A stretch of 64,000 bases of DNA from an uncultured Gammaproteobacteria bacterium. Lineage in GTDB: Bacteria; Patescibacteriota; Patescibacteriia; Magasanikbacterales; UBA10003. Below, piece after piece: positions 4,493 to 39,742 of the stretch. Position 1 is the first letter of the stretch, and each line of letters opens with the position of its first letter. The notes under the pieces were generated by a model. The model did no database searches. It was not told where the DNA came from and saw nothing but the letters and a program-made list of their open reading frames with translations. The DNA lies in the NCBI GenBank assembly GCA_964365025.1, contig CAYIOJ010000002.1, positions 20,208 through 84,207 of the forward strand, in the 5' to 3' direction. Made by a program: the position numbers and the translations under genes.

Positions 4493-6677
4493 AGTATTCA
4501 ATACTTTGTATTTTCATTCCGTTCAACAAGTAGATTGTTTTATTTTTCTCGTTGACGCTTAGATCTTGAAGGTCGGTGAATTCTTCGGCTGTGTATTGGG
4601 CAACCAATTTTTGCGTTTTTTTATTCCAGATAATCACTCGTTTTTGTCCCGGGTCTAGAATAAAGATGTTCTGCGAATCGGGCGAGCTAAAAATTTTTAC
4701 GGCTGAATTTAACTGCGGGTCTAGCGCGGAGAGCGAAAAATTTTGTAAATGGCCGCTGTCCAGTTTTGACACGCTGCCGTAAGGCCTCGCAATGTAGATT
4801 GATCCATCAATGGCCCAGCCGGTAAGGTCAGACACTGAAATATCTTCTTTGAGCCAACCGGCTCCTTTGGCAAAACCGGTGGTGCTTTCTTTGTGTTTGG
4901 CAATCAGATTATTTTTTACATCCAATGAGTACAGATAAGTATTATAATGGCCAATGAGTTTTATTTCCGAATCAGTCTTGGGCCAGATTATTTCCAAAGA
5001 AGAAAATTCGCCTGTTTTGAGGTCAAATTGCGTCAGTCGGTCTTTGCCATTGAGCAGTAACACTAATCCGTCTTTTTTTACGAATTTATATTTTAATTCT
5101 CCCGCAAGAGGCGAAGTTAAGGCGACTGATGTTTTGCTTTTTGTGTCGTATCGCCAAAGATTAGTATCATTATTGCAGAAAAAGAAAAAAGATAATTTGG
5201 CGGCGATAAGGTCGGTCGGTTGGCAAGTTAGATTTAGCGCGGACAAATCAGCCGCGAGTGTTGGCACAATCGTTTTCAGGTGGCGGAGCTTAGCGGCGAT
5301 AATTTCGGCGTTGACGAGTAAATTTTGCCGCATGGTTCGCCGGTTGGCGGAATTTTGGGGAAATTCAGTTAGGTCATTTTTAATTTCTGTCAGCAATTTT
5401 TCAGCTTGTTCTTCGTCTTTATAGATAATGCTTGATTCGGCTTGGTCTATTTTTTCTTTAATGCCATTCAACAGTTGATTATATTTTTCCTGCTCCAAAC
5501 GATTGTTGTTTTGTTGATAACTCCAGCCCACGCTTACGATAAAAATCGCGCCAACGATCAGCGCTCCTAAAAATAAGTAGCGGCGAGTCGGCGGTAATGC
5601 TAGAATTTTGGCGCGTGGGGCTTGCCAGAGTTTTTGGGCCAGCGCGCGCAGGGCGGTGATACCGGCTGTTTTTTTCACTATCGGTTCAGTCGGCGGCTTG
5701 GCCGTTCGGCTGAAAAATTTAATCATTTCACGCCAGGTTTTTTTCATCTGCCCCTGCCAGCCGGTCAGGCGGTTATAGATTTTTGTGATTTTTTTAATTG
5801 TTTCCAAATCCGAATCCTGTTTATTTTTCGTTTTGTTAAAGAATTTTTTGAACATCAGCCAAAGTGAAGGCGACAGGATGTTTTCCGTCTCTTTTTCTTT
5901 ATACACTAAGCGGCGGATAGAATTGTCCGGCGTAACGCGTTCGGTGGAAGCGATTTGAATTTGCCTTTGCGCCGATGGCGTTAAAAGATTAATAATCAAC
6001 CCGCCGAAAGAAAGCTGGTTGGCGATTTGATTTAAAGTTTTTTCCAAATAACGGCAGGCGTTTTCCATTGGGCGCGACAAAATAATTTTTTCCAAGCGGT
6101 CAATGGTAATAAAATCAAAAACCGCGCCCGTGCAAAATATAACCAGATTGTCCGGGCTCAAATCACCGGAAACCAGATTAGAGAAAAAAGGCCCGGCTTC
6201 TTTCTGTCTATCTCCGTAAGTTTTAATTAGGTCAAGATGGCGGTATTTTTCGCCGTCTTTAAAAATGATGTAGCCGCTAATGCGGCCATTGAAAGTAAAT
6301 TGTAATTGATTATTTTTTATGCCGCCAAAAATAAAATTCAATTCGTTTAATTCATCGGGTTTAAGCATTTGGCCGATCAGACGGTTGGCCCACTCCAAAT
6401 TGTGTTCAAAAGCGTTGTCCGGGTTGTCTTTGATTTCTTCCTCATAGTGACGAAGCATTTGATTGATGAGAATCGGCATTGTTTCTCTAAGATGGGGCGT
6501 CGGATGATATTCCACCATGGCGAAAAGACGGCTCATCGGCAGATTGTGCTTGGGCGGCGGCGCCAAAGACAAAAGTACGCGCGAATGGTCTTTGAGCGAC
6601 GACTGGGTGAGGAAGGTATTTAGTTCAGTGGAATTAATTGGCATAAACAAAGCGGCGTTTGACTGCGCACCTTGCAT
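4491..6677 (-). CDS. Single-pass membrane protein with a cytoplasmic N-terminal domain (possibly PP2C-like) and an extracytoplasmic beta-propeller-like repeat domain
   Basis: 728 aa with one TM helix (YLFLGALIVGAIFIVSVGW) near residue 360. The N-terminal domain has a weak PP2C-like segment (VSGDLSPDNLVIFCTGAVFDF). The C-terminal half is repetitive and beta-rich. Confidence 0.5.
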   Translation of the reverse strand: MQGAQSNAALFMPINSTELNTFLTQSSLKDHSRVLLSLAPPPKHNLPMSRLFAMVEYHPTPHLRETMPILINQMLRHYEEEIKDNPDNAFEHNLEWANRLIGQMLKPDELNELNFIFGGIKNNQLQFTFNGRISGYIIFKDGEKYRHLDLIKTYGDRQKEAGPFFSNLVSGDLSPDNLVIFCTGAVFDFITIDRLEKIILSRPMENACRYLEKTLNQIANQLSFGGLIINLLTPSAQRQIQIASTERVTPDNSIRRLVYKEKETENILSPSLWLMFKKFFNKTKNKQDSDLETIKKITKIYNRLTGWQGQMKKTWREMIKFFSRTAKPPTEPIVKKTAGITALRALAQKLWQAPRAKILALPPTRRYLFLGALIVGAIFIVSVGWSYQQNNNRLEQEKYNQLLNGIKEKIDQAESSIIYKDEEQAEKLLTEIKNDLTEFPQNSANRRTMRQNLLVNAEIIAAKLRHLKTIVPTLAADLSALNLTCQPTDLIAAKLSFFFFCNNDTNLWRYDTKSKTSVALTSPLAGELKYKFVKKDGLVLLLNGKDRLTQFDLKTGEFSSLEIIWPKTDSEIKLIGHYNTYLYSLDVKNNLIAKHKESTTGFAKGAGWLKEDISVSDLTGWAIDGSIYIARPYGSVSKLDSGHLQNFSLSALDPQLNSAVKIFSSPDSQNIFILDPGQKRVIIWNKKTQKLVAQYTAEEFTDLQDLSVNEKNKTIYLLNGMKIQSIEY

Positions 6678-31785: not shown

Positions 31786-32925
31786 ATGCAAGAAAAATCT
31801 CTTTCTTTTTTTGAGGCCTTGGCAGTGCTGGTCGGCTCGGTGATTGGAGCCGGTGTTTTGGGTATTCCTTATGCTGTTGCTAAAGTCGGCTGGGGCATCG
31901 GCGTGATTTATCTCGCGGCTTTGGGTGTTTTGGTGATGGGCTTAAATTTACTTTTGGGCGAGATTGTTTTGCGCACCAAACACCATTTGCAGATTCCGGG
32001 ACTGGCTAATAAGTATCTTGGGACAAAAGGCAAATATTTTGTCACTTTTTCCGTGCTTTTCGGCTCGTACGGCGGTCTTTTGGCCTATGTGATCGGCGAG
32101 GGACAGGTGCTGAAAGCGCTTTTTGGTGGCGATGCTTTTTGGTGGAGCTTGTTTTTTTGGGTGGCCGGCTCCTATGCGGTTTTTTACGGTTTGCGGTTGA
32201 TTAAAAAATTGGATTTGATTTTGACTTTGATAATTTTTGCCGTGGTTTTGATAATTACCGTGTGGAGCGCGCCGGATATTCATTGGCCGAATTTAGGCAA
32301 TCATGTCACTTGGGCTAATTTATTTCTGCCTTACGGCGTGATTTTATTCGCTTTGCAAGGCGCTTCGGCCATTCCGCAGGTGAAAGAAATTTTGCCGCAT
32401 CAGCAGAAAAATTTGCGGTCGGTGATTACTTGGGGCGGACTCATTCCAATTTTTGTCTATTTTTTATTCATGACAGCTGTGGTTGGCGTTACCGGTACTG
32501 CCACAACCGAAGTGGCTACAGTCGGATTGGGGCAAAAACTCGGGCCGGCTTTGGTGATTTTTGGCAATTTGTTCGCTCTATTTGCCATGGGCACTTGTTT
32601 TTTAAACAATGCAATCGCGGTAAAGAAACAATTTGAATGGGATTATAAACTGGATAAATTTAATGCTTGGGTTTTGACAATAATGGCGCCATTGCTTTTG
32701 TTTTTACTCGGCGCCAGAAATTTTATTGGCACTTTGGAAATCGTGGGCGCGCTGTTTGGCAGTTTTAACGCCATTATTATTATAATTATTTATTGGCAGG
32801 CCAAACGAAAGGGCGATTTGCCCGTGCGTTGGTACAGTTTGCACCACGCCCTGCTTTTAAGCATTTTAATTATTTTAATTTTTGTCATTGGAGCGGTTTT
32901 AACTTTTTGGCAAATTGGGAGATAA
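31786..32925 (+). CDS. Amino-acid permease-like membrane transporter (aromatic amino acid / Trp-Tyr permease-like)
   Basis: About 11 TM helices. The N-terminal FEALAVLVGSVIGAGVLGIPYAV is typical of amino-acid transporter families. Confidence 0.55.
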   Translation: MQEKSLSFFEALAVLVGSVIGAGVLGIPYAVAKVGWGIGVIYLAALGVLVMGLNLLLGEIVLRTKHHLQIPGLANKYLGTKGKYFVTFSVLFGSYGGLLAYVIGEGQVLKALFGGDAFWWSLFFWVAGSYAVFYGLRLIKKLDLILTLIIFAVVLIITVWSAPDIHWPNLGNHVTWANLFLPYGVILFALQGASAIPQVKEILPHQQKNLRSVITWGGLIPIFVYFLFMTAVVGVTGTATTEVATVGLGQKLGPALVIFGNLFALFAMGTCFLNNAIAVKKQFEWDYKLDKFNAWVLTIMAPLLLFLLGARNFIGTLEIVGALFGSFNAIIIIIIYWQAKRKGDLPVRWYSLHHALLLSILIILIFVIGAVLTFWQIGR

Positions 32926-32962
32926 GATGTAGTTATAGAAGGGGGAAAATAGATTAAAATAT

Positions 32963-33347
32963 ATGAACGATTACGAAGATTTCAAAGATAGATTTAAATT
33001 ACTGGCGAGCAAGAATCATCATTTAATAGTGAACACGCTTTCTAATATTTTTACGATGCGTTTGATAGGCAACAAAACACATGGCGACCTCGCTGAAATT
33101 GGTATGGCTGAATTCATCAATCAATTCATGTACGACTTCAAAAGTATCCATGTTGGAAAAGATCTTTTTAGGGCAAAAAAAACACGAAGAAGATATCGTA
33201 ATAATCAATGAAATAACCAATACAAAATTTCTTGTTAGTTTGAAGGCATATGGAGACGGCCCGCTTCAACTTTCAACGGATAGCAGACAAAAATATTCCC
33301 ATACCTTGAAAATCAAGGATTACAAATTAAAAATTCTAAACAAATAG
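32963..33347 (+). pseudogene. Small ORF split by a +1/-1 frameshift at an A8 homopolymer run; possibly a small restriction endonuclease partnered with the adjacent methyltransferase
   Basis: ORFs 32963-33211 and 33081-33347 overlap in different frames around GGGCAAAAAAAACACG. Removing one A joins them into a single ~128-aa protein. The region is AT-rich. Confidence 0.45.
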
Positions 33348-33491
33348 CCAAAATTTTTAAAAAGGATGGATAGATTACTCGCATAATCATGCACTGGTAA
33401 AATTATTTAGTCTCGCTTTAAATAGCTCTGAAAAAGGGCACAAATTGGCTAATGAAATTTTGCAAAAAGACATAGACAGATTAAAAAAGCT

Positions 33492-34718
33492 ATGATAAAT
33501 CAGCAGCTCAACATATTTGGAAATAAAATATTCACCGCCCCAAAGACGCAGGGTATAAAATACACAGTATCTAAATTGAAGATTCTGCCTCATATTGTCC
33601 AAATTTTGAGTGAGCTGGATGGCATAAATAATGTGCTCGACGGATTTAGCGGCACAACGCGCGTTTCACAAGCTTTCGCGCAATTGGGTTACAACATGAC
33701 CTCAAATGATATTTCTATTTGGTCAGAGGTGTTTGGAAATTGTTATTTGCTTTCCAAAAAACCGGATTCATTTTATCAAAAAATTATTAATTATTTAAAC
33801 TCTTTAAAAGGATATGATGGTTGGTATACAGAACATTACGGCGCTGAAATCGCTGAAAATAAAAGACCTTTTCAAGCGAAAAATACTCGCAAATTAGACG
33901 CGATACGAGATGAAATTGAAAAACTCAATCTTGGTTGGGAGGATAAATGCGTAATTCTTGCCAGTCTTATTTATGCGTTGGATTCTGTTGATAGTACTCT
34001 GGGGCACTATGTGGCTTATTTATCAAAATGGTCGCAACGGTCACATAACGATTTATTTCTAAAATTGCCGAAAAGGTTTGAAATATTTGGTGAGCATAAA
34101 GTAATTCGTAATGATATTTTTGATACTGTATTAAAAAATAGTTTTGATTTAGCATATTTTGACCCGCCATACGGCTCAAACAACGAAAAAATGCCACCAA
34201 GCAGAGTGCGTTATGCATCTTATTATCATATTTGGACAACAATAATAAAACACGACAAACCGGAGATTTTTGGCAAAGCGAATCGACGCGTAGACAGCAG
34301 AGACGGTGTGGCAGCTTCAGTATTTGAAGAATTTAGAAAAAATGATGATGGTTCGTTTATTGCCATGGAAGCGTTAAGAAGATTAATTCAAACGACCGAT
34401 TCTCGTTATATTTTATTGTCATACAGTTCTGGAGGCAGAGCCACAAAACAAGAGCTAAATGAAATAATTGACGAATCTGGAAGGCTGTTAAAAGCGATAG
34501 AGATCAACTATAAGAAAAATGTGATGGGAAATATGCGATGGACAAACGAATGGATAAATAGTGATGAAAAACATTGCGAATATTTATTTTTAATGGAGAA
34601 AAATACTATTTCCACAAATCAGACACAAGCCAAAGCGACTTGGTTTTCCAGCGTTCACGCATTTAATTCCTCACCGCCGTCCGCCCAAAAAGAAAAAATA
34701 AAATTGGCCTCTCTTTAA
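33492..34718 (+). CDS. N6-adenine DNA methyltransferase (Dam-like)
   Basis: Carries the FDPPYGS (DPPY) catalytic motif and an N-terminal AdoMet-binding region (LDGFSGTTRV). The gene is AT-rich. Confidence 0.7.
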   Translation: MINQQLNIFGNKIFTAPKTQGIKYTVSKLKILPHIVQILSELDGINNVLDGFSGTTRVSQAFAQLGYNMTSNDISIWSEVFGNCYLLSKKPDSFYQKIINYLNSLKGYDGWYTEHYGAEIAENKRPFQAKNTRKLDAIRDEIEKLNLGWEDKCVILASLIYALDSVDSTLGHYVAYLSKWSQRSHNDLFLKLPKRFEIFGEHKVIRNDIFDTVLKNSFDLAYFDPPYGSNNEKMPPSRVRYASYYHIWTTIIKHDKPEIFGKANRRVDSRDGVAASVFEEFRKNDDGSFIAMEALRRLIQTTDSRYILLSYSSGGRATKQELNEIIDESGRLLKAIEINYKKNVMGNMRWTNEWINSDEKHCEYLFLMEKNTISTNQTQAKATWFSSVHAFNSSPPSAQKEKIKLASL

Positions 34719-34769
34719 GAGTGTTCATCTTGGGCCGATAAAGGAAAATATAACTAACGAAGATAAATT

Positions 34770-35756
34770 ATGTCAAAAGTCTGCATTCTTGGCAGTGGGA
34801 GCATGGGCACGGCTCTCGCGCATTTGATAGGCGGCAACGGGCACAAGGTGGTAATTTGGAGTATTGATAAAGAAGCGGCCGAGCACATCAATACTAATCA
34901 TGAAAATAAAAAGTTTTTGCCCGGTGTTTCTTTGAATAAAAATGTTTCAGCAAGTTTAATTTTGCCGCTGGCACTGGCTGACGCTTCGGTTGTGATTGTG
35001 GCTTTGCCAACGCAAGTAGTGAATCAAGTAATGCCGGCTCTTCACAATCACACGGCTAAAGACGCTGTGATTTTGAGTGTGTCCAAGGGCATTGATGTGA
35101 AAAGCGGGCAGACGGTCTCGCAAATTATCAAATCAATTTTGCCGGAGGTGCGTCATAAAAACATTGCCGCATTGATGGGGCCGTTGTTTGCGTCGGAAAT
35201 TTCCGCCAAGGTACCAAGCGTGGGGCTTTTGGCAATCAGCGACCTAAAAGTTTTTAAGTTTTTACAAAAGATTTTGGTTAATAAACATTTTTTTGTCAGA
35301 TATTCCGATGATTTGATCGGCGCGGAATTGGCCGGCGCTTTGAAAAATATTTACGCCATACTTTTGGGAGTGTGCGATGGCATGGGCTATGGCTGGAATA
35401 CCAAATCGGCCTTGATGACAGCGGTAGTGAAAGAAATGTCCGAGGTGGGGCAGTATCTGGGCGGGAAAAAAGAAACATTTTATGGTTTGGCCGGAATGGG
35501 GGATTTATTAACCACGGGATTTGGCGAAAAAAGCCGCAATCGTCGGTTTGGCGAGAAATTGTGTTCAGGCAAAACAGCGCAAGAAGTGATTAAAGAAATC
35601 GGTCATGTGGTAGAGGGCGCGGCTACGGTTAAGTCGGTGATGAAAGCGCTTATTTCTTTTAAAAAGCAGGCGCCATTACTATCAGCTGTGAATGACATTG
35701 TGAGCAAACGCAAAAATCCTTGTACAATTTTACAAAAGCTGTTTAATGTGATATGA
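34770..35756 (+). CDS. gpsA: NAD(P)H-dependent glycerol-3-phosphate dehydrogenase
   Basis: ILGSGSMGTALA Rossmann motif and C-terminal GpsA domain motifs (GLAGMGDLLTT). Confidence 0.85.
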   Translation: MSKVCILGSGSMGTALAHLIGGNGHKVVIWSIDKEAAEHINTNHENKKFLPGVSLNKNVSASLILPLALADASVVIVALPTQVVNQVMPALHNHTAKDAVILSVSKGIDVKSGQTVSQIIKSILPEVRHKNIAALMGPLFASEISAKVPSVGLLAISDLKVFKFLQKILVNKHFFVRYSDDLIGAELAGALKNIYAILLGVCDGMGYGWNTKSALMTAVVKEMSEVGQYLGGKKETFYGLAGMGDLLTTGFGEKSRNRRFGEKLCSGKTAQEVIKEIGHVVEGAATVKSVMKALISFKKQAPLLSAVNDIVSKRKNPCTILQKLFNVI

Positions 35757-35769
35757 TTGAAGCGAATCT

Positions 35770-36474
35770 ATGCATTTTTTAGTTGAAATTTGGAACAATT
35801 TTTTATATATTCCGCTGTTGAACGCTTTGATTTGGTTTTATAATGACTGGGGCAAGGAAAATCTCGGCTACGCGGTTATTATTTTAACTGTTGCTTTGCG
35901 CATTGTGCTTTTGCCTTTGAGCATTGTTTCCGAACGCAATAAATTAAGATATAAAACACTGGACAAAAAAATAGTTGAAGCGGAAAAGGCGTATAAAAAA
36001 GATCGCGTTTTGTTAAAAGAAAAAATTCGCGAGTTATTAAAACAATACAAAATCAGTCCTTGGGCCAAGACGGTAATTTTAGGGATTCAGGCCTTGGTGT
36101 TGGTGCTGTTGTATCAAGTTTTTATTCATGGCATCACCCGCACCAAATTGAATGTGTTGTATCCTTTTGTTGACCGGCCGGAAATCATTTATACGAATTT
36201 TTATGGATTTGAACTTGGCCTGCGCAATTTATGGTGGGCGGTGGCAGTTGGAGCCGTGCTGTTCATTGAAATTTATCTTGACCAGCGTCGCCGCAAGTCG
36301 CAAGTGACCAAAAATGAGCAGGTCTACGCCATTTTGTTTCCCATTATGAGCGTTCTCGCGCTTTACGCCCTGCCCATGGTAAAATCGCTCTTTATCTTGA
36401 CAACTTTGGCTTTTTCATATATGCTATCTATATTTCGGGTGGTATTTTATCCCGAAGAAAAAGAAGAACATTAA
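35770..36474 (+). CDS. yidC: Membrane protein insertase, YidC/Oxa1 family (short form)
   Basis: About 5 TM helices and the conserved motifs RIVLLPL and LLYQVF. Confidence 0.7.
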   Translation: MHFLVEIWNNFLYIPLLNALIWFYNDWGKENLGYAVIILTVALRIVLLPLSIVSERNKLRYKTLDKKIVEAEKAYKKDRVLLKEKIRELLKQYKISPWAKTVILGIQALVLVLLYQVFIHGITRTKLNVLYPFVDRPEIIYTNFYGFELGLRNLWWAVAVGAVLFIEIYLDQRRRKSQVTKNEQVYAILFPIMSVLALYALPMVKSLFILTTLAFSYMLSIFRVVFYPEEKEEH

Positions 36475-38435: not shown

Positions 38436-38497
38436 ATTAAGCCCAAGTTTCGTTTTTTGGTATTAAATAAGTAGCTTGTTTCTATAATATTAGAAAC

Positions 38498-39742
38498 TCA
38501 ATTATTTGTTAATAGCCATTTCCACAATGGCTTGACTTCAATTGTAACTCCATTTTGTTTGATGATTTTTTCTTGATTGATTGTTAAAATCAGTCCCTTT
38601 TTAAGACGGCTGGCATTCAATGCTTCTGATAATCCGTTTATCTCTCGTTCTTGATTTTCATCTCCCAAATAAGCCGTGACCTGAATTGCCGAGGTTATTT
38701 TATTTTTTTCTTTTATTAAAAAGTCGCATTCTTTTTTATTTTTGAAATAATAAATTTCGTGACCGCGCCGTTTTAATTCAATAAACACCAAATTTTCCAA
38801 CAGTCGTCCTTTGTCCGCGGAGACGGAAAAAGCTATTTCATTGCGCAGGCCATTGTCAATAACAAATATCTTTTTGTCGGAAATAAATTGTTTTTTCAGC
38901 GAATAATCATATTTCATCAATTTAAAAACCAAATAGGCCTCGGTCATAAAACTAACATGTTTGCGCACAGACACCGGGCTTTTATAGCCCAGTATTTTTT
39001 TAAGACCATTATAGCTGATTTCTTTGCCGACATTAGAAAAAAGGAAAGCGGCCAACTGTTGGAATAATTTTGTTTCTCTGATTTTAAATCTGGCGATTAA
39101 ATCTTTATACAAAACATCTTCATAAATTCTTTTTAGATATTCTTTTTCTTGATATTTTATCGCTTCGGGAAATCCGCCGCCAGCCAGATATTCGTCGAAT
39201 TTTTTTAACAATGTCGCTTGTCCGGCCGAAGAATCATCAGCGAGGTTTATATTTTTAAATATCAGAAATTCTCTGAAAGAAAAAGGATAAAGTTCAATTT
39301 TAAAATAACGGCCGGTTAAATGCGTGGCCAATTCCGAACTTAACAGTTTGGCATTGGATCCGGTGATAAAAATTTTATAACCTTCTTCATAAAGACGGCG
39401 CGCGAATCTCTCCCAGCCGATTACATTTTGCACCTCATCCATAAAAATTACATTGGCTTGGCGCGATTTTTTGAAAGCGAGCATCAAATCAGAAAAATCA
39501 TCAATCGTAAAATTGATGAGCCGTTCGTCATCAAAAGTGATGTAGTAGAAATCAGGGAAGCGAGTGGAAAATTGTTTGAGCAGGGTGGATTTACCGCTTC
39601 TCCGGACGCCGGAGATGGCGGTGATTTGTTTGGTTTTAAGATATTTGGAAAAATCCAGTTCGCGGGCGATGCCGCGGTCTTTGGCTTCAAAGTTTTTTCT
39701 TTGGTCAGCGATGGTTTGTTCAAGCAAATTCAGCTCTATCAT
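38498..39742 (-). CDS. AAA+ ATPase with a C-terminal DUF4143-like domain (COG1373-type), second paralogue
   Basis: Walker A GVRRSGKST, Walker B IFMDEVQ, and the DUF4143-like C-terminus. The gene is AT-rich. Confidence 0.65.
   Translation of the reverse strand: MIELNLLEQTIADQRKNFEAKDRGIARELDFSKYLKTKQITAISGVRRSGKSTLLKQFSTRFPDFYYITFDDERLINFTIDDFSDLMLAFKKSRQANVIFMDEVQNVIGWERFARRLYEEGYKIFITGSNAKLLSSELATHLTGRYFKIELYPFSFREFLIFKNINLADDSSAGQATLLKKFDEYLAGGGFPEAIKYQEKEYLKRIYEDVLYKDLIARFKIRETKLFQQLAAFLFSNVGKEISYNGLKKILGYKSPVSVRKHVSFMTEAYLVFKLMKYDYSLKKQFISDKKIFVIDNGLRNEIAFSVSADKGRLLENLVFIELKRRGHEIYYFKNKKECDFLIKEKNKITSAIQVTAYLGDENQEREINGLSEALNASRLKKGLILTINQEKIIKQNGVTIEVKPLWKWLLTNN

Follow-up and report, generated by a model that had tools for sequence, protein, structure and literature searches.

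Introduction

Type II restriction-modification (R-M) cassettes spread horizontally and lose their endonuclease first, and the loss of a Type II endonuclease that leaves a solitary methylase behind is a textbook outcome. R.SspI and M.SspI of Sphaerotilus, the endonuclease (R) and methyltransferase (M) of one such system, recognise AATATT; R.SspI has been characterised biochemically and is sold commercially. Phase variation through homopolymer tracts is also known for R-M genes, among them the mod genes of Type III systems and certain Type II systems in Helicobacter, Neisseria, and Haemophilus.

In pan-genomes, loss of the endonuclease in situ is the rarer origin of solitary methyltransferases (MTases) (Oliveira et al. 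2014, PMC4176335). Bare R-M units may also insert with a target duplication, a class that is defined by duplications of more than 30 bp (Furuta et al. 2010, PMC2853133). When Type II enzymes were classified by fold in 2008 (PMC2441816), SspI itself was placed under 'Unknown superfamily', and our literature search for the sequence or fold of R.SspI found none beyond that unassigned listing.

Here we describe an island within a 64-kb stretch of DNA (the window). It is very probably a horizontally acquired Type II R-M cassette in which the endonuclease is dead and which is decaying to an orphan methylase. Like SspI-type Type IIP systems, the locus has the R gene ahead of the M gene, an overlapping stop and start codon, and an N6-adenine MTase as partner. 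Unlike in those systems, the R gene here is a pseudogene with three lesions. The locus also resembles orphan MTases that arose by endonuclease loss, as an intact and constrained D12 MTase adjoins the decayed cognate R gene. It differs from Dam or CcrM in that the MTase is not a conserved, domesticated orphan. The features of the locus are listed in Table 1.

Table 1. Features of the island and its flanks, with positions in the window
Feature	Position	Strand	Details and evidence
Flanking host gene, Trp/Tyr-type amino-acid permease	31786..32925	+	Pfam PF03222, E 5.4e-26
Left AGATAA direct repeat (6 bp)	32920..32925	.	Includes the permease TAA stop; junction alignment with L088
Inserted island	32926..34766	+	1,835 bp of foreign DNA plus the second AGATAA copy; L088 alignment and composition
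SspI-like Type II restriction endonuclease pseudogene	32963..33495	+	533-bp remnant of an 864-bp gene; homology, tblastn, L004 DNA alignment
Lesion 1, A8 run	33175..33182	+	+1 relative to A7 (GCA AAA AAA CAC = A-K-K-H) in L004 and L006
Lesion 2, 1-base loss in a second A run	33289..33293	+	A5 here, A6 in L004; DNA alignment columns 330-345, tblastn frame change
Lesion 3, junction of ~331-bp out-of-frame deletion	33355..33366	+	Residues ~135-244 gone; tblastn gap at amino acids 134-245
Intact D12-class N6-adenine DNA methyltransferase gene, 408 amino acids	33492..34718	+	PF02086; ATG overlaps TGA of the R remnant (ATGA)
Right AGATAA direct repeat (6 bp)	34761..34766	.	Followed by ATT, then the gpsA ATG
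Flanking host gene gpsA, NAD-dependent glycerol-3-phosphate dehydrogenase	34770..35756	+	Pfam PF07479 and PF01210

An island inserted between a permease gene and gpsA

The initial annotation had placed the island between a permease gene and gpsA, at 32926-34760. Pfam matches on both flanks agree with the placement, and the limits proved exact when aligned with a related contig. This contig, L088 from Hainich well H43, was the one found by a gpsA search. It is 92% identical to the window over the 3' end of the permease gene (32389-32925) and 86% identical over the gpsA side (34761-35802), with nothing between the equivalents of window positions 32925 and 34761. At its junction the permease TAA is followed by three bases (ATT) and then by the gpsA ATG, the sequence reading ...GGGAGATAAATTATG.... 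AGATAA is present as a single copy at this empty site and as two copies in the window, one at each end of the insert. The empty site thus delimits an insertion of 1.84 kb bounded by a 6-bp AGATAA direct repeat. The GC content of the island is 34.9%, compared to 44.5% for the window; the earlier figure of ~30% for the island was too low.

The island is a recent, lineage-specific insertion without a counterpart in the sister population. In principle, the empty site in L088 could have come about by precise excision via the 6-bp repeat instead of being the ancestral state, and the repeat itself could be chance microhomology. Related cassettes with 82-85% nucleotide identity are found in unrelated contexts, after ftsH in L004 and after the trigger factor gene in L006. 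Their homology to the window starts 7 bp before the start of R and stops 3 bp past the stop of M.

Like the mobile R-M units of Furuta et al. (PMC2853133), the insert consists of the R and M genes only, has an empty site in a related genome, and is bounded by a direct repeat that is single-copy at that site. It differs from those units, with their duplications of more than 30 bp, in that the repeat is only 6 bp long and terminal inverted repeats are lacking; a repeat search at the island found none. The ORFs of the island include no mobility genes, neither an integrase nor a transposase.

The restriction gene is a remnant with three lesions

Upstream of the MTase gene lie two overlapping ORF pieces (32963-33211, 82 amino acids; 33081-33347, 88 amino acids), initially read as an ORF of ~128 codons split by one frameshift. 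Dropping one A does join the pieces to about 128 codons, but they belong to a gene of 287 codons that has suffered three lesions. We joined the fragments across all three frames (178 amino acids) and searched the translation against a collection of 5.8 billion proteins. There were 3,944 matches, the best with an E-value of 1.6e-95 and 87% identity (P0001). The remnant is 79-87% identical to 287-amino-acid proteins, one of which (P0023) is named SspI by both NCBI and UniRef. Nearly all of the matches are 283-290 amino acids long, so the ancestral gene had about 287 codons and not 128. Most come from Patescibacteria-type metagenome bins. It had been considered that the two half-ORFs might have independent homologues; both match the one protein family. 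Searches of Pfam, NCBIfam, and PDB sequences returned nothing meaningful, whether the query was the 178-residue remnant, an intact homologue, or a profile of 30 sequences.

When P0001 was compared to the window by tblastn, its residues 1-73, 72-109, 110-134, and 245-287 were recovered, spread over three frames. The first frameshift parts E45 from D77 and K94. The second shifts the reading back to the first frame, and the neighbouring ATG is now ATA. The third lesion takes out the central, beta-rich part of the protein: L004 positions ~4527-4868 are missing from the window, and the difference in length between the ancestral gene and the remnant (864 - 533) is 331 bp. The 3' end of the remnant is preserved up to the TGA that overlaps the MTase ATG (ATGA, 33492-33495). 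Two frameshifts and the loss of residues ~135-244 make this a pseudogene of the SspI-like family and not a functional member; it is similar to the family of ~280-290-residue proteins and has no uninterrupted full-length ORF. The endonuclease gene is beyond recovery. Decay to an orphan methylase was one of the options raised initially, and the three independent lesions in the nuclease gene bear it out. In annotation, 32963-33495 is better called a pseudogene than two small hypothetical ORFs.

Compared to L004, the remnant has a dN of 0.037 with synonymous sites saturated. Most of the divergence therefore arose while the gene was still constrained, and the gene was inactivated recently compared with the time at which the cassette lineages split. 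The remnant has eight lineage-specific amino-acid changes, compared to 5 and 12 in relatives. One of the eight affects P90, a residue that all 30 close relatives share, as is expected of a gene released from constraint.

In a one-genome-per-species collection, 476 loci encode a relative, and we examined the best 80 of them. An MTase homologue is encoded directly downstream of the 287-residue R gene in 78 of the 80. The two exceptions are L055, with methylase fragments only, and L082, where the contig ends. Together with the match of the upstream remnant to the 287-residue family, this context agrees with the earlier reading of the pair as an R-M system. The ATGA overlap of the R stop and the M start is shared by the intact cassette in L004. 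A predicted viral contig encodes a distant copy (48% identity) with the same R-M pair, again with the ATGA overlap.

The methyltransferase gene is intact

The initial annotation recognised an N6-adenine MTase with a DPPY motif, and the 408-residue ORF indeed matches Pfam PF02086 with an E-value of 1.5e-20 (74.4 bits, cut-off 22). DPPY is at residues 224-227 and the AdoMet-binding glycine-rich sequence DGFSGTTR at residues 50-57, both invariant in the family alignment. No PDB sequence matched the MTase at E <= 0.01. The enzyme shares 85% identity with P0122, a methylase encoded directly after an intact 287-residue endonuclease. In 120 homologues 115 columns do not vary, and the enzyme keeps all of them. 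In pairwise comparisons with L004 and L006, dN/dS is 0.068-0.084 at a dS of ~1.1. By these substitution ratios the MTase is under purifying selection, and the methylase is likely still active.

Alternative explanations

The run of eight A's noticed initially at the frameshift is present, inside GGGCAAAAAAAACACG. It is not unusual here, as the window has 22 A/T runs of exactly 8. The initial annotation had also raised phase variation. Under this reading, slippage in the run would toggle the nuclease while the methylase stays on. As in phase-variable R-M genes, the frameshift falls exactly within a homopolymer tract in an R-M coding sequence, and the closest relatives, the intact L004 included, have an in-frame A7. 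Restoring A7 would nevertheless leave the frameshift at 33289-33293 and the ~331-bp out-of-frame deletion (residues 135-244) in place, and phase variation is rejected on this ground. Nor is the tract conserved among orthologues. At the site of the first lesion, 62 of 72 informative loci (some of them redundant) have only 2-4 A's, because the codons there are AAA GAA (Lys-Glu) or similar, and A7 is confined to the closest subclade and to L081, where it is independent. Length variation was not seen either. The exact methylase sequence is present on three separately assembled contigs from the Hainich groundwater well H51, a neighbour of H43 (ERZ1292634, ERZ1292641, and ERZ1292643), which are 100%, 100%, and 99.95% identical to the window over 2.2 kb spanning the island. 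All three (L001-L003) have A8 while L004 and L006 have A7, a comparison at the level of assemblies, with minority variants in the reads being possible. The agreement of the three assemblies argues against an actively switching tract and against a sequencing artefact. Unlike a phase-variable R-M gene, then, the R gene here is otherwise broken, its tract is unconserved, and the tract does not vary in length among the three assemblies. We consider a phase-variable endonuclease highly improbable, and the A8 run does not belong in a list of contingency loci. Equally hard to credit is an error of sequencing or assembly, with the endonuclease gene intact and A8 a homopolymer error. Homopolymer miscalls are frequent and the contigs are thinly covered (their names give cov 3-5), but the same sequence came from three separately assembled samples, and such miscalls cannot account for a second indel or for a deletion of 331 bp.

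Two further readings concern the methylase. It might have been acquired alone as a solitary gene, with the upstream fragments being unrelated junk, and a pan-genome survey does find that solitary methylases usually arrive as such (PMC4176335). This has next to no probability here, given that 394 bp of the upstream DNA match the endonuclease gene of an intact cassette with 84.5% identity and that the gene order and the ATGA overlap are those of the intact cassette. Less remote, though unlikely, is that the whole island is a dead relic in which the methylase too is inactive, with its decay not yet visible. Only one private change, G26V, falls at a column that does not otherwise vary in 120 homologues. 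The affected motif is IKYAGSKLK, which from an alignment by eye we take to be the counterpart of the Dam WAGGK AdoMet-binding motif, and the change could impair the enzyme. The adjacent A25T is unique among 24 aligned sequences. Translational coupling to the upstream gene through ATGA has been lost, and a promoter of its own is unconvincing: a promoter and terminator scan of the island gave nothing above the shuffled expectation, promoter-like matches being no commoner than in shuffled sequence. Against a dead relic, the ORF is full-length and retains DPPY and all other invariant residues. The tally of changes at conserved columns is ordinary, with two departures at columns conserved at 95% or more and a family median of 2. 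The MTase also has 23 lineage-specific amino-acid changes, compared to 24 and 31 in two relatives.

Probable decay to an orphan methylase

In the reading that we prefer, decay of an acquired cassette to an orphan methylase, a compact two-gene Type IIP cassette (endonuclease followed by methyltransferase) entered the 3-bp spacer between the permease gene and gpsA, and the insertion left the 6-bp AGATAA at each end. The host lives in groundwater and is probably one of the Patescibacteria. The endonuclease gene was then inactivated by slips from A7 to A8 and from A6 to A5 and by the ~331-bp deletion of its central third, the order of the three lesions being conjectural. The whole MTase is predicted to still methylate adenine in the target of the cassette, as a newly orphaned methylase.

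That target is presumably AATATT, if the 'SspI' label, which comes from one source, is right; statistics of site avoidance favour it indirectly and weakly. In ~293 kb of pooled host flanks from 80 cassettes, AATATT has an observed to expected ratio (O/E) of 0.61 (z -5.0). Of the 64 palindromic hexamers, it has the lowest z-score in these flanks, and GATATC comes close. Avoidance in the window alone is unconvincing, with 38 sites compared to 44.7 +/- 7.1 in dinucleotide shuffles and an O/E of 0.62 under a Markov-4 model. Within the cassettes themselves, L004 has no AATATT site, L006 has two, and the island has five. At 3.0 per kb, the density in the island is the highest among 75 cassettes (mean 0.58 per kb). 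This fits a relaxed avoidance of self sites after the death of the endonuclease, though the numbers are small.

It is also possible, though we think it rather unlikely, that the orphan methylase is not awaiting decay but is retained as immunity against incoming SspI-like cassettes. An intact copy of the cassette, with an 85%-identical methylase, is encoded by another organism of the same sample, ERZ1292634. If the methylase were so retained, a resident enzyme of the same specificity would protect the genome when new cassettes arrive, both from being restricted and from post-segregational killing, and the cell could safely shed the toxic endonuclease.

The locus represents an ordinary stage of R-M decay and adds one more decayed member to a known kind of system. 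As a snapshot it is unusually clean. The empty site, the junctions, an intact donor-type cassette, and the three lesions can be recovered together, and the locus thus shows how an orphan methylase can arise in situ, a route that a large pan-genome survey judged the rarer one (PMC4176335).

The SspI-like endonuclease family

The SspI-like endonucleases have no Pfam or NCBIfam model despite thousands of metagenome members. With 30 close homologues as input, AlphaFold at first gave a model with a pLDDT of only 60.5, and its Foldseek matches were meaningless. For a second alignment we added relatives of 50-60% identity, for a total of 124 sequences. The AlphaFold (AF2) model of an intact member predicted from it has a pLDDT of 89.8 and a pTM of 0.84. 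With Foldseek, its top PDB matches are nearly all PD-(D/E)XK enzymes (Hjc resolvases, R.SwaI, R.HinP1I, and MunI), all of them weak (E 0.05-0.9). Among the BFVD viral models, the named matches are RecU/Holliday-junction resolvases, Cas4, and NOV_C (NO VEIN C-terminal), the best with an E-value of 1.2e-3. The predicted structure thus points weakly to a PD-(D/E)XK core, and the model of the intact SspI-like member best resembles nucleases of this kind, including the blunt cutter R.SwaI. The family-invariant E45, D77, and S92-x-K94 fall on helix 39-55 and strands 78-82 and 88-97 of the model, which would be where a PD-(D/E)XK site sits. As a by-product of this work, there is now a confident predicted structure for a family whose fold was 'unknown' in the 2008 classification.

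In the Hainich groundwater community, cassettes of the SspI-like kind are mobile and occur extremely often.

Decay of the R gene recurs in the SspI-like family. The first ORF in L006 is 82 amino acids long, as in the window, and a recurrent frameshift in the A run was considered. This was ruled out, as L006 and L009, both Magasanikbacteria, have an intact A7 and an independent nonsense mutation, GAG to TAG, at codon 83. The R gene of L047 has an in-frame stop, and L055 has lost parts of both the R and M genes. In L064, a second R copy is frameshifted.

Loss of the endonuclease in related cassettes

The table lists features of the window's island, which carries a decayed SspI-like restriction endonuclease gene (R) and a D12-class N6-adenine methyltransferase gene (M), and of related cassettes. 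In the second-closest cassette (L006/L009, also L007), a GAG to TAG change at codon 83 kills the endonuclease, independently of the lesions in the window. The A7 tract of this cassette is undamaged, and a whole methylase lies beside the nonsense-carrying gene. The nonsense codon ends its first ORF after 82 aa, the same length as the first ORF of the window, which is a coincidence. Three further cassettes carry damage; in the Paludibacteraceae locus the frame of the second R copy shifts near aa 78–86.

Features of the island and of related cassettes
Feature	Location	Source
R gene with nonsense codon	L006 4141-5004 (= L009 3001-3861); also L007	Candidatus Magasanikbacteria GCA_016214465.1
Intact R gene, then second R copy with frameshift	L064 948-2722	Paludibacteraceae MAG
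Stop in R; M reduced to fragments	L055 3001-3951	
In-frame stop within R	L047 3001-3846	
AATATT sites (n=5)	33044, 33292, 33527, 34082, 34579	window
G26V, methyltransferase codon 26	33567-33569	window
R-M pair and neighbours	L091 1479-7786	IMG/VR UViG 2663763167_000013, predicted viral contig

Target sites and methylase substitutions in the island

AATATT, the presumed target of the cassette, occurs in the island at 3.0 per kb, the highest density in a set of 75 homologous cassettes (mean 0.58 per kb); the closest intact cassette (L004) has none. The site at 33292 arose through the second lesion of the R gene itself. Once the endonuclease was gone, avoidance of its cognate site may have relaxed, which would account for the high density. 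In the methylase, G26V, inside the IKYAGSKLK motif, is private to the window, with glycine invariant across the other 119 homologues, and the adjacent A25T is found in the window alone among 24 aligned sequences. Both substitutions could affect cofactor binding.

Distribution of the cassette and of the endonuclease family

The same cassette is encoded, intact, in an organism other than that of the window (L004/L005, a contig from ERZ1292634; also GCA_964596405.1), with a methylase 85% identical to the window's. This one groundwater sample is the source of both the intact cassette and the window's population, consistent with active cassette exchange inside the community. On the predicted viral contig, the R-M pair (48% identical) is flanked by two genes. 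One encodes a large N6-adenine methylase with an NPPY motif, similar by eye to the HsdM subunit of Type I systems; the other encodes a 633-aa protein with the P-loop motif GPSDTGKT. The neighbourhood looks like a defence island.

Clustered at 90% identity, the SspI-like endonuclease family (P0001-P0120, P0245-P0364) forms nearly 4,000 groups, from Patescibacteria, Bacteroidales, cyanobacteria, Corynebacterium and others. It has neither a Pfam or NCBIfam model nor a solved structure; an AlphaFold model (m5cfb50d0a612) is a confident prediction.

Downstream of the island, after a few kb, the composition profile of the window shows a further AT-rich dip (38450-38900, GC 0.30-0.35).
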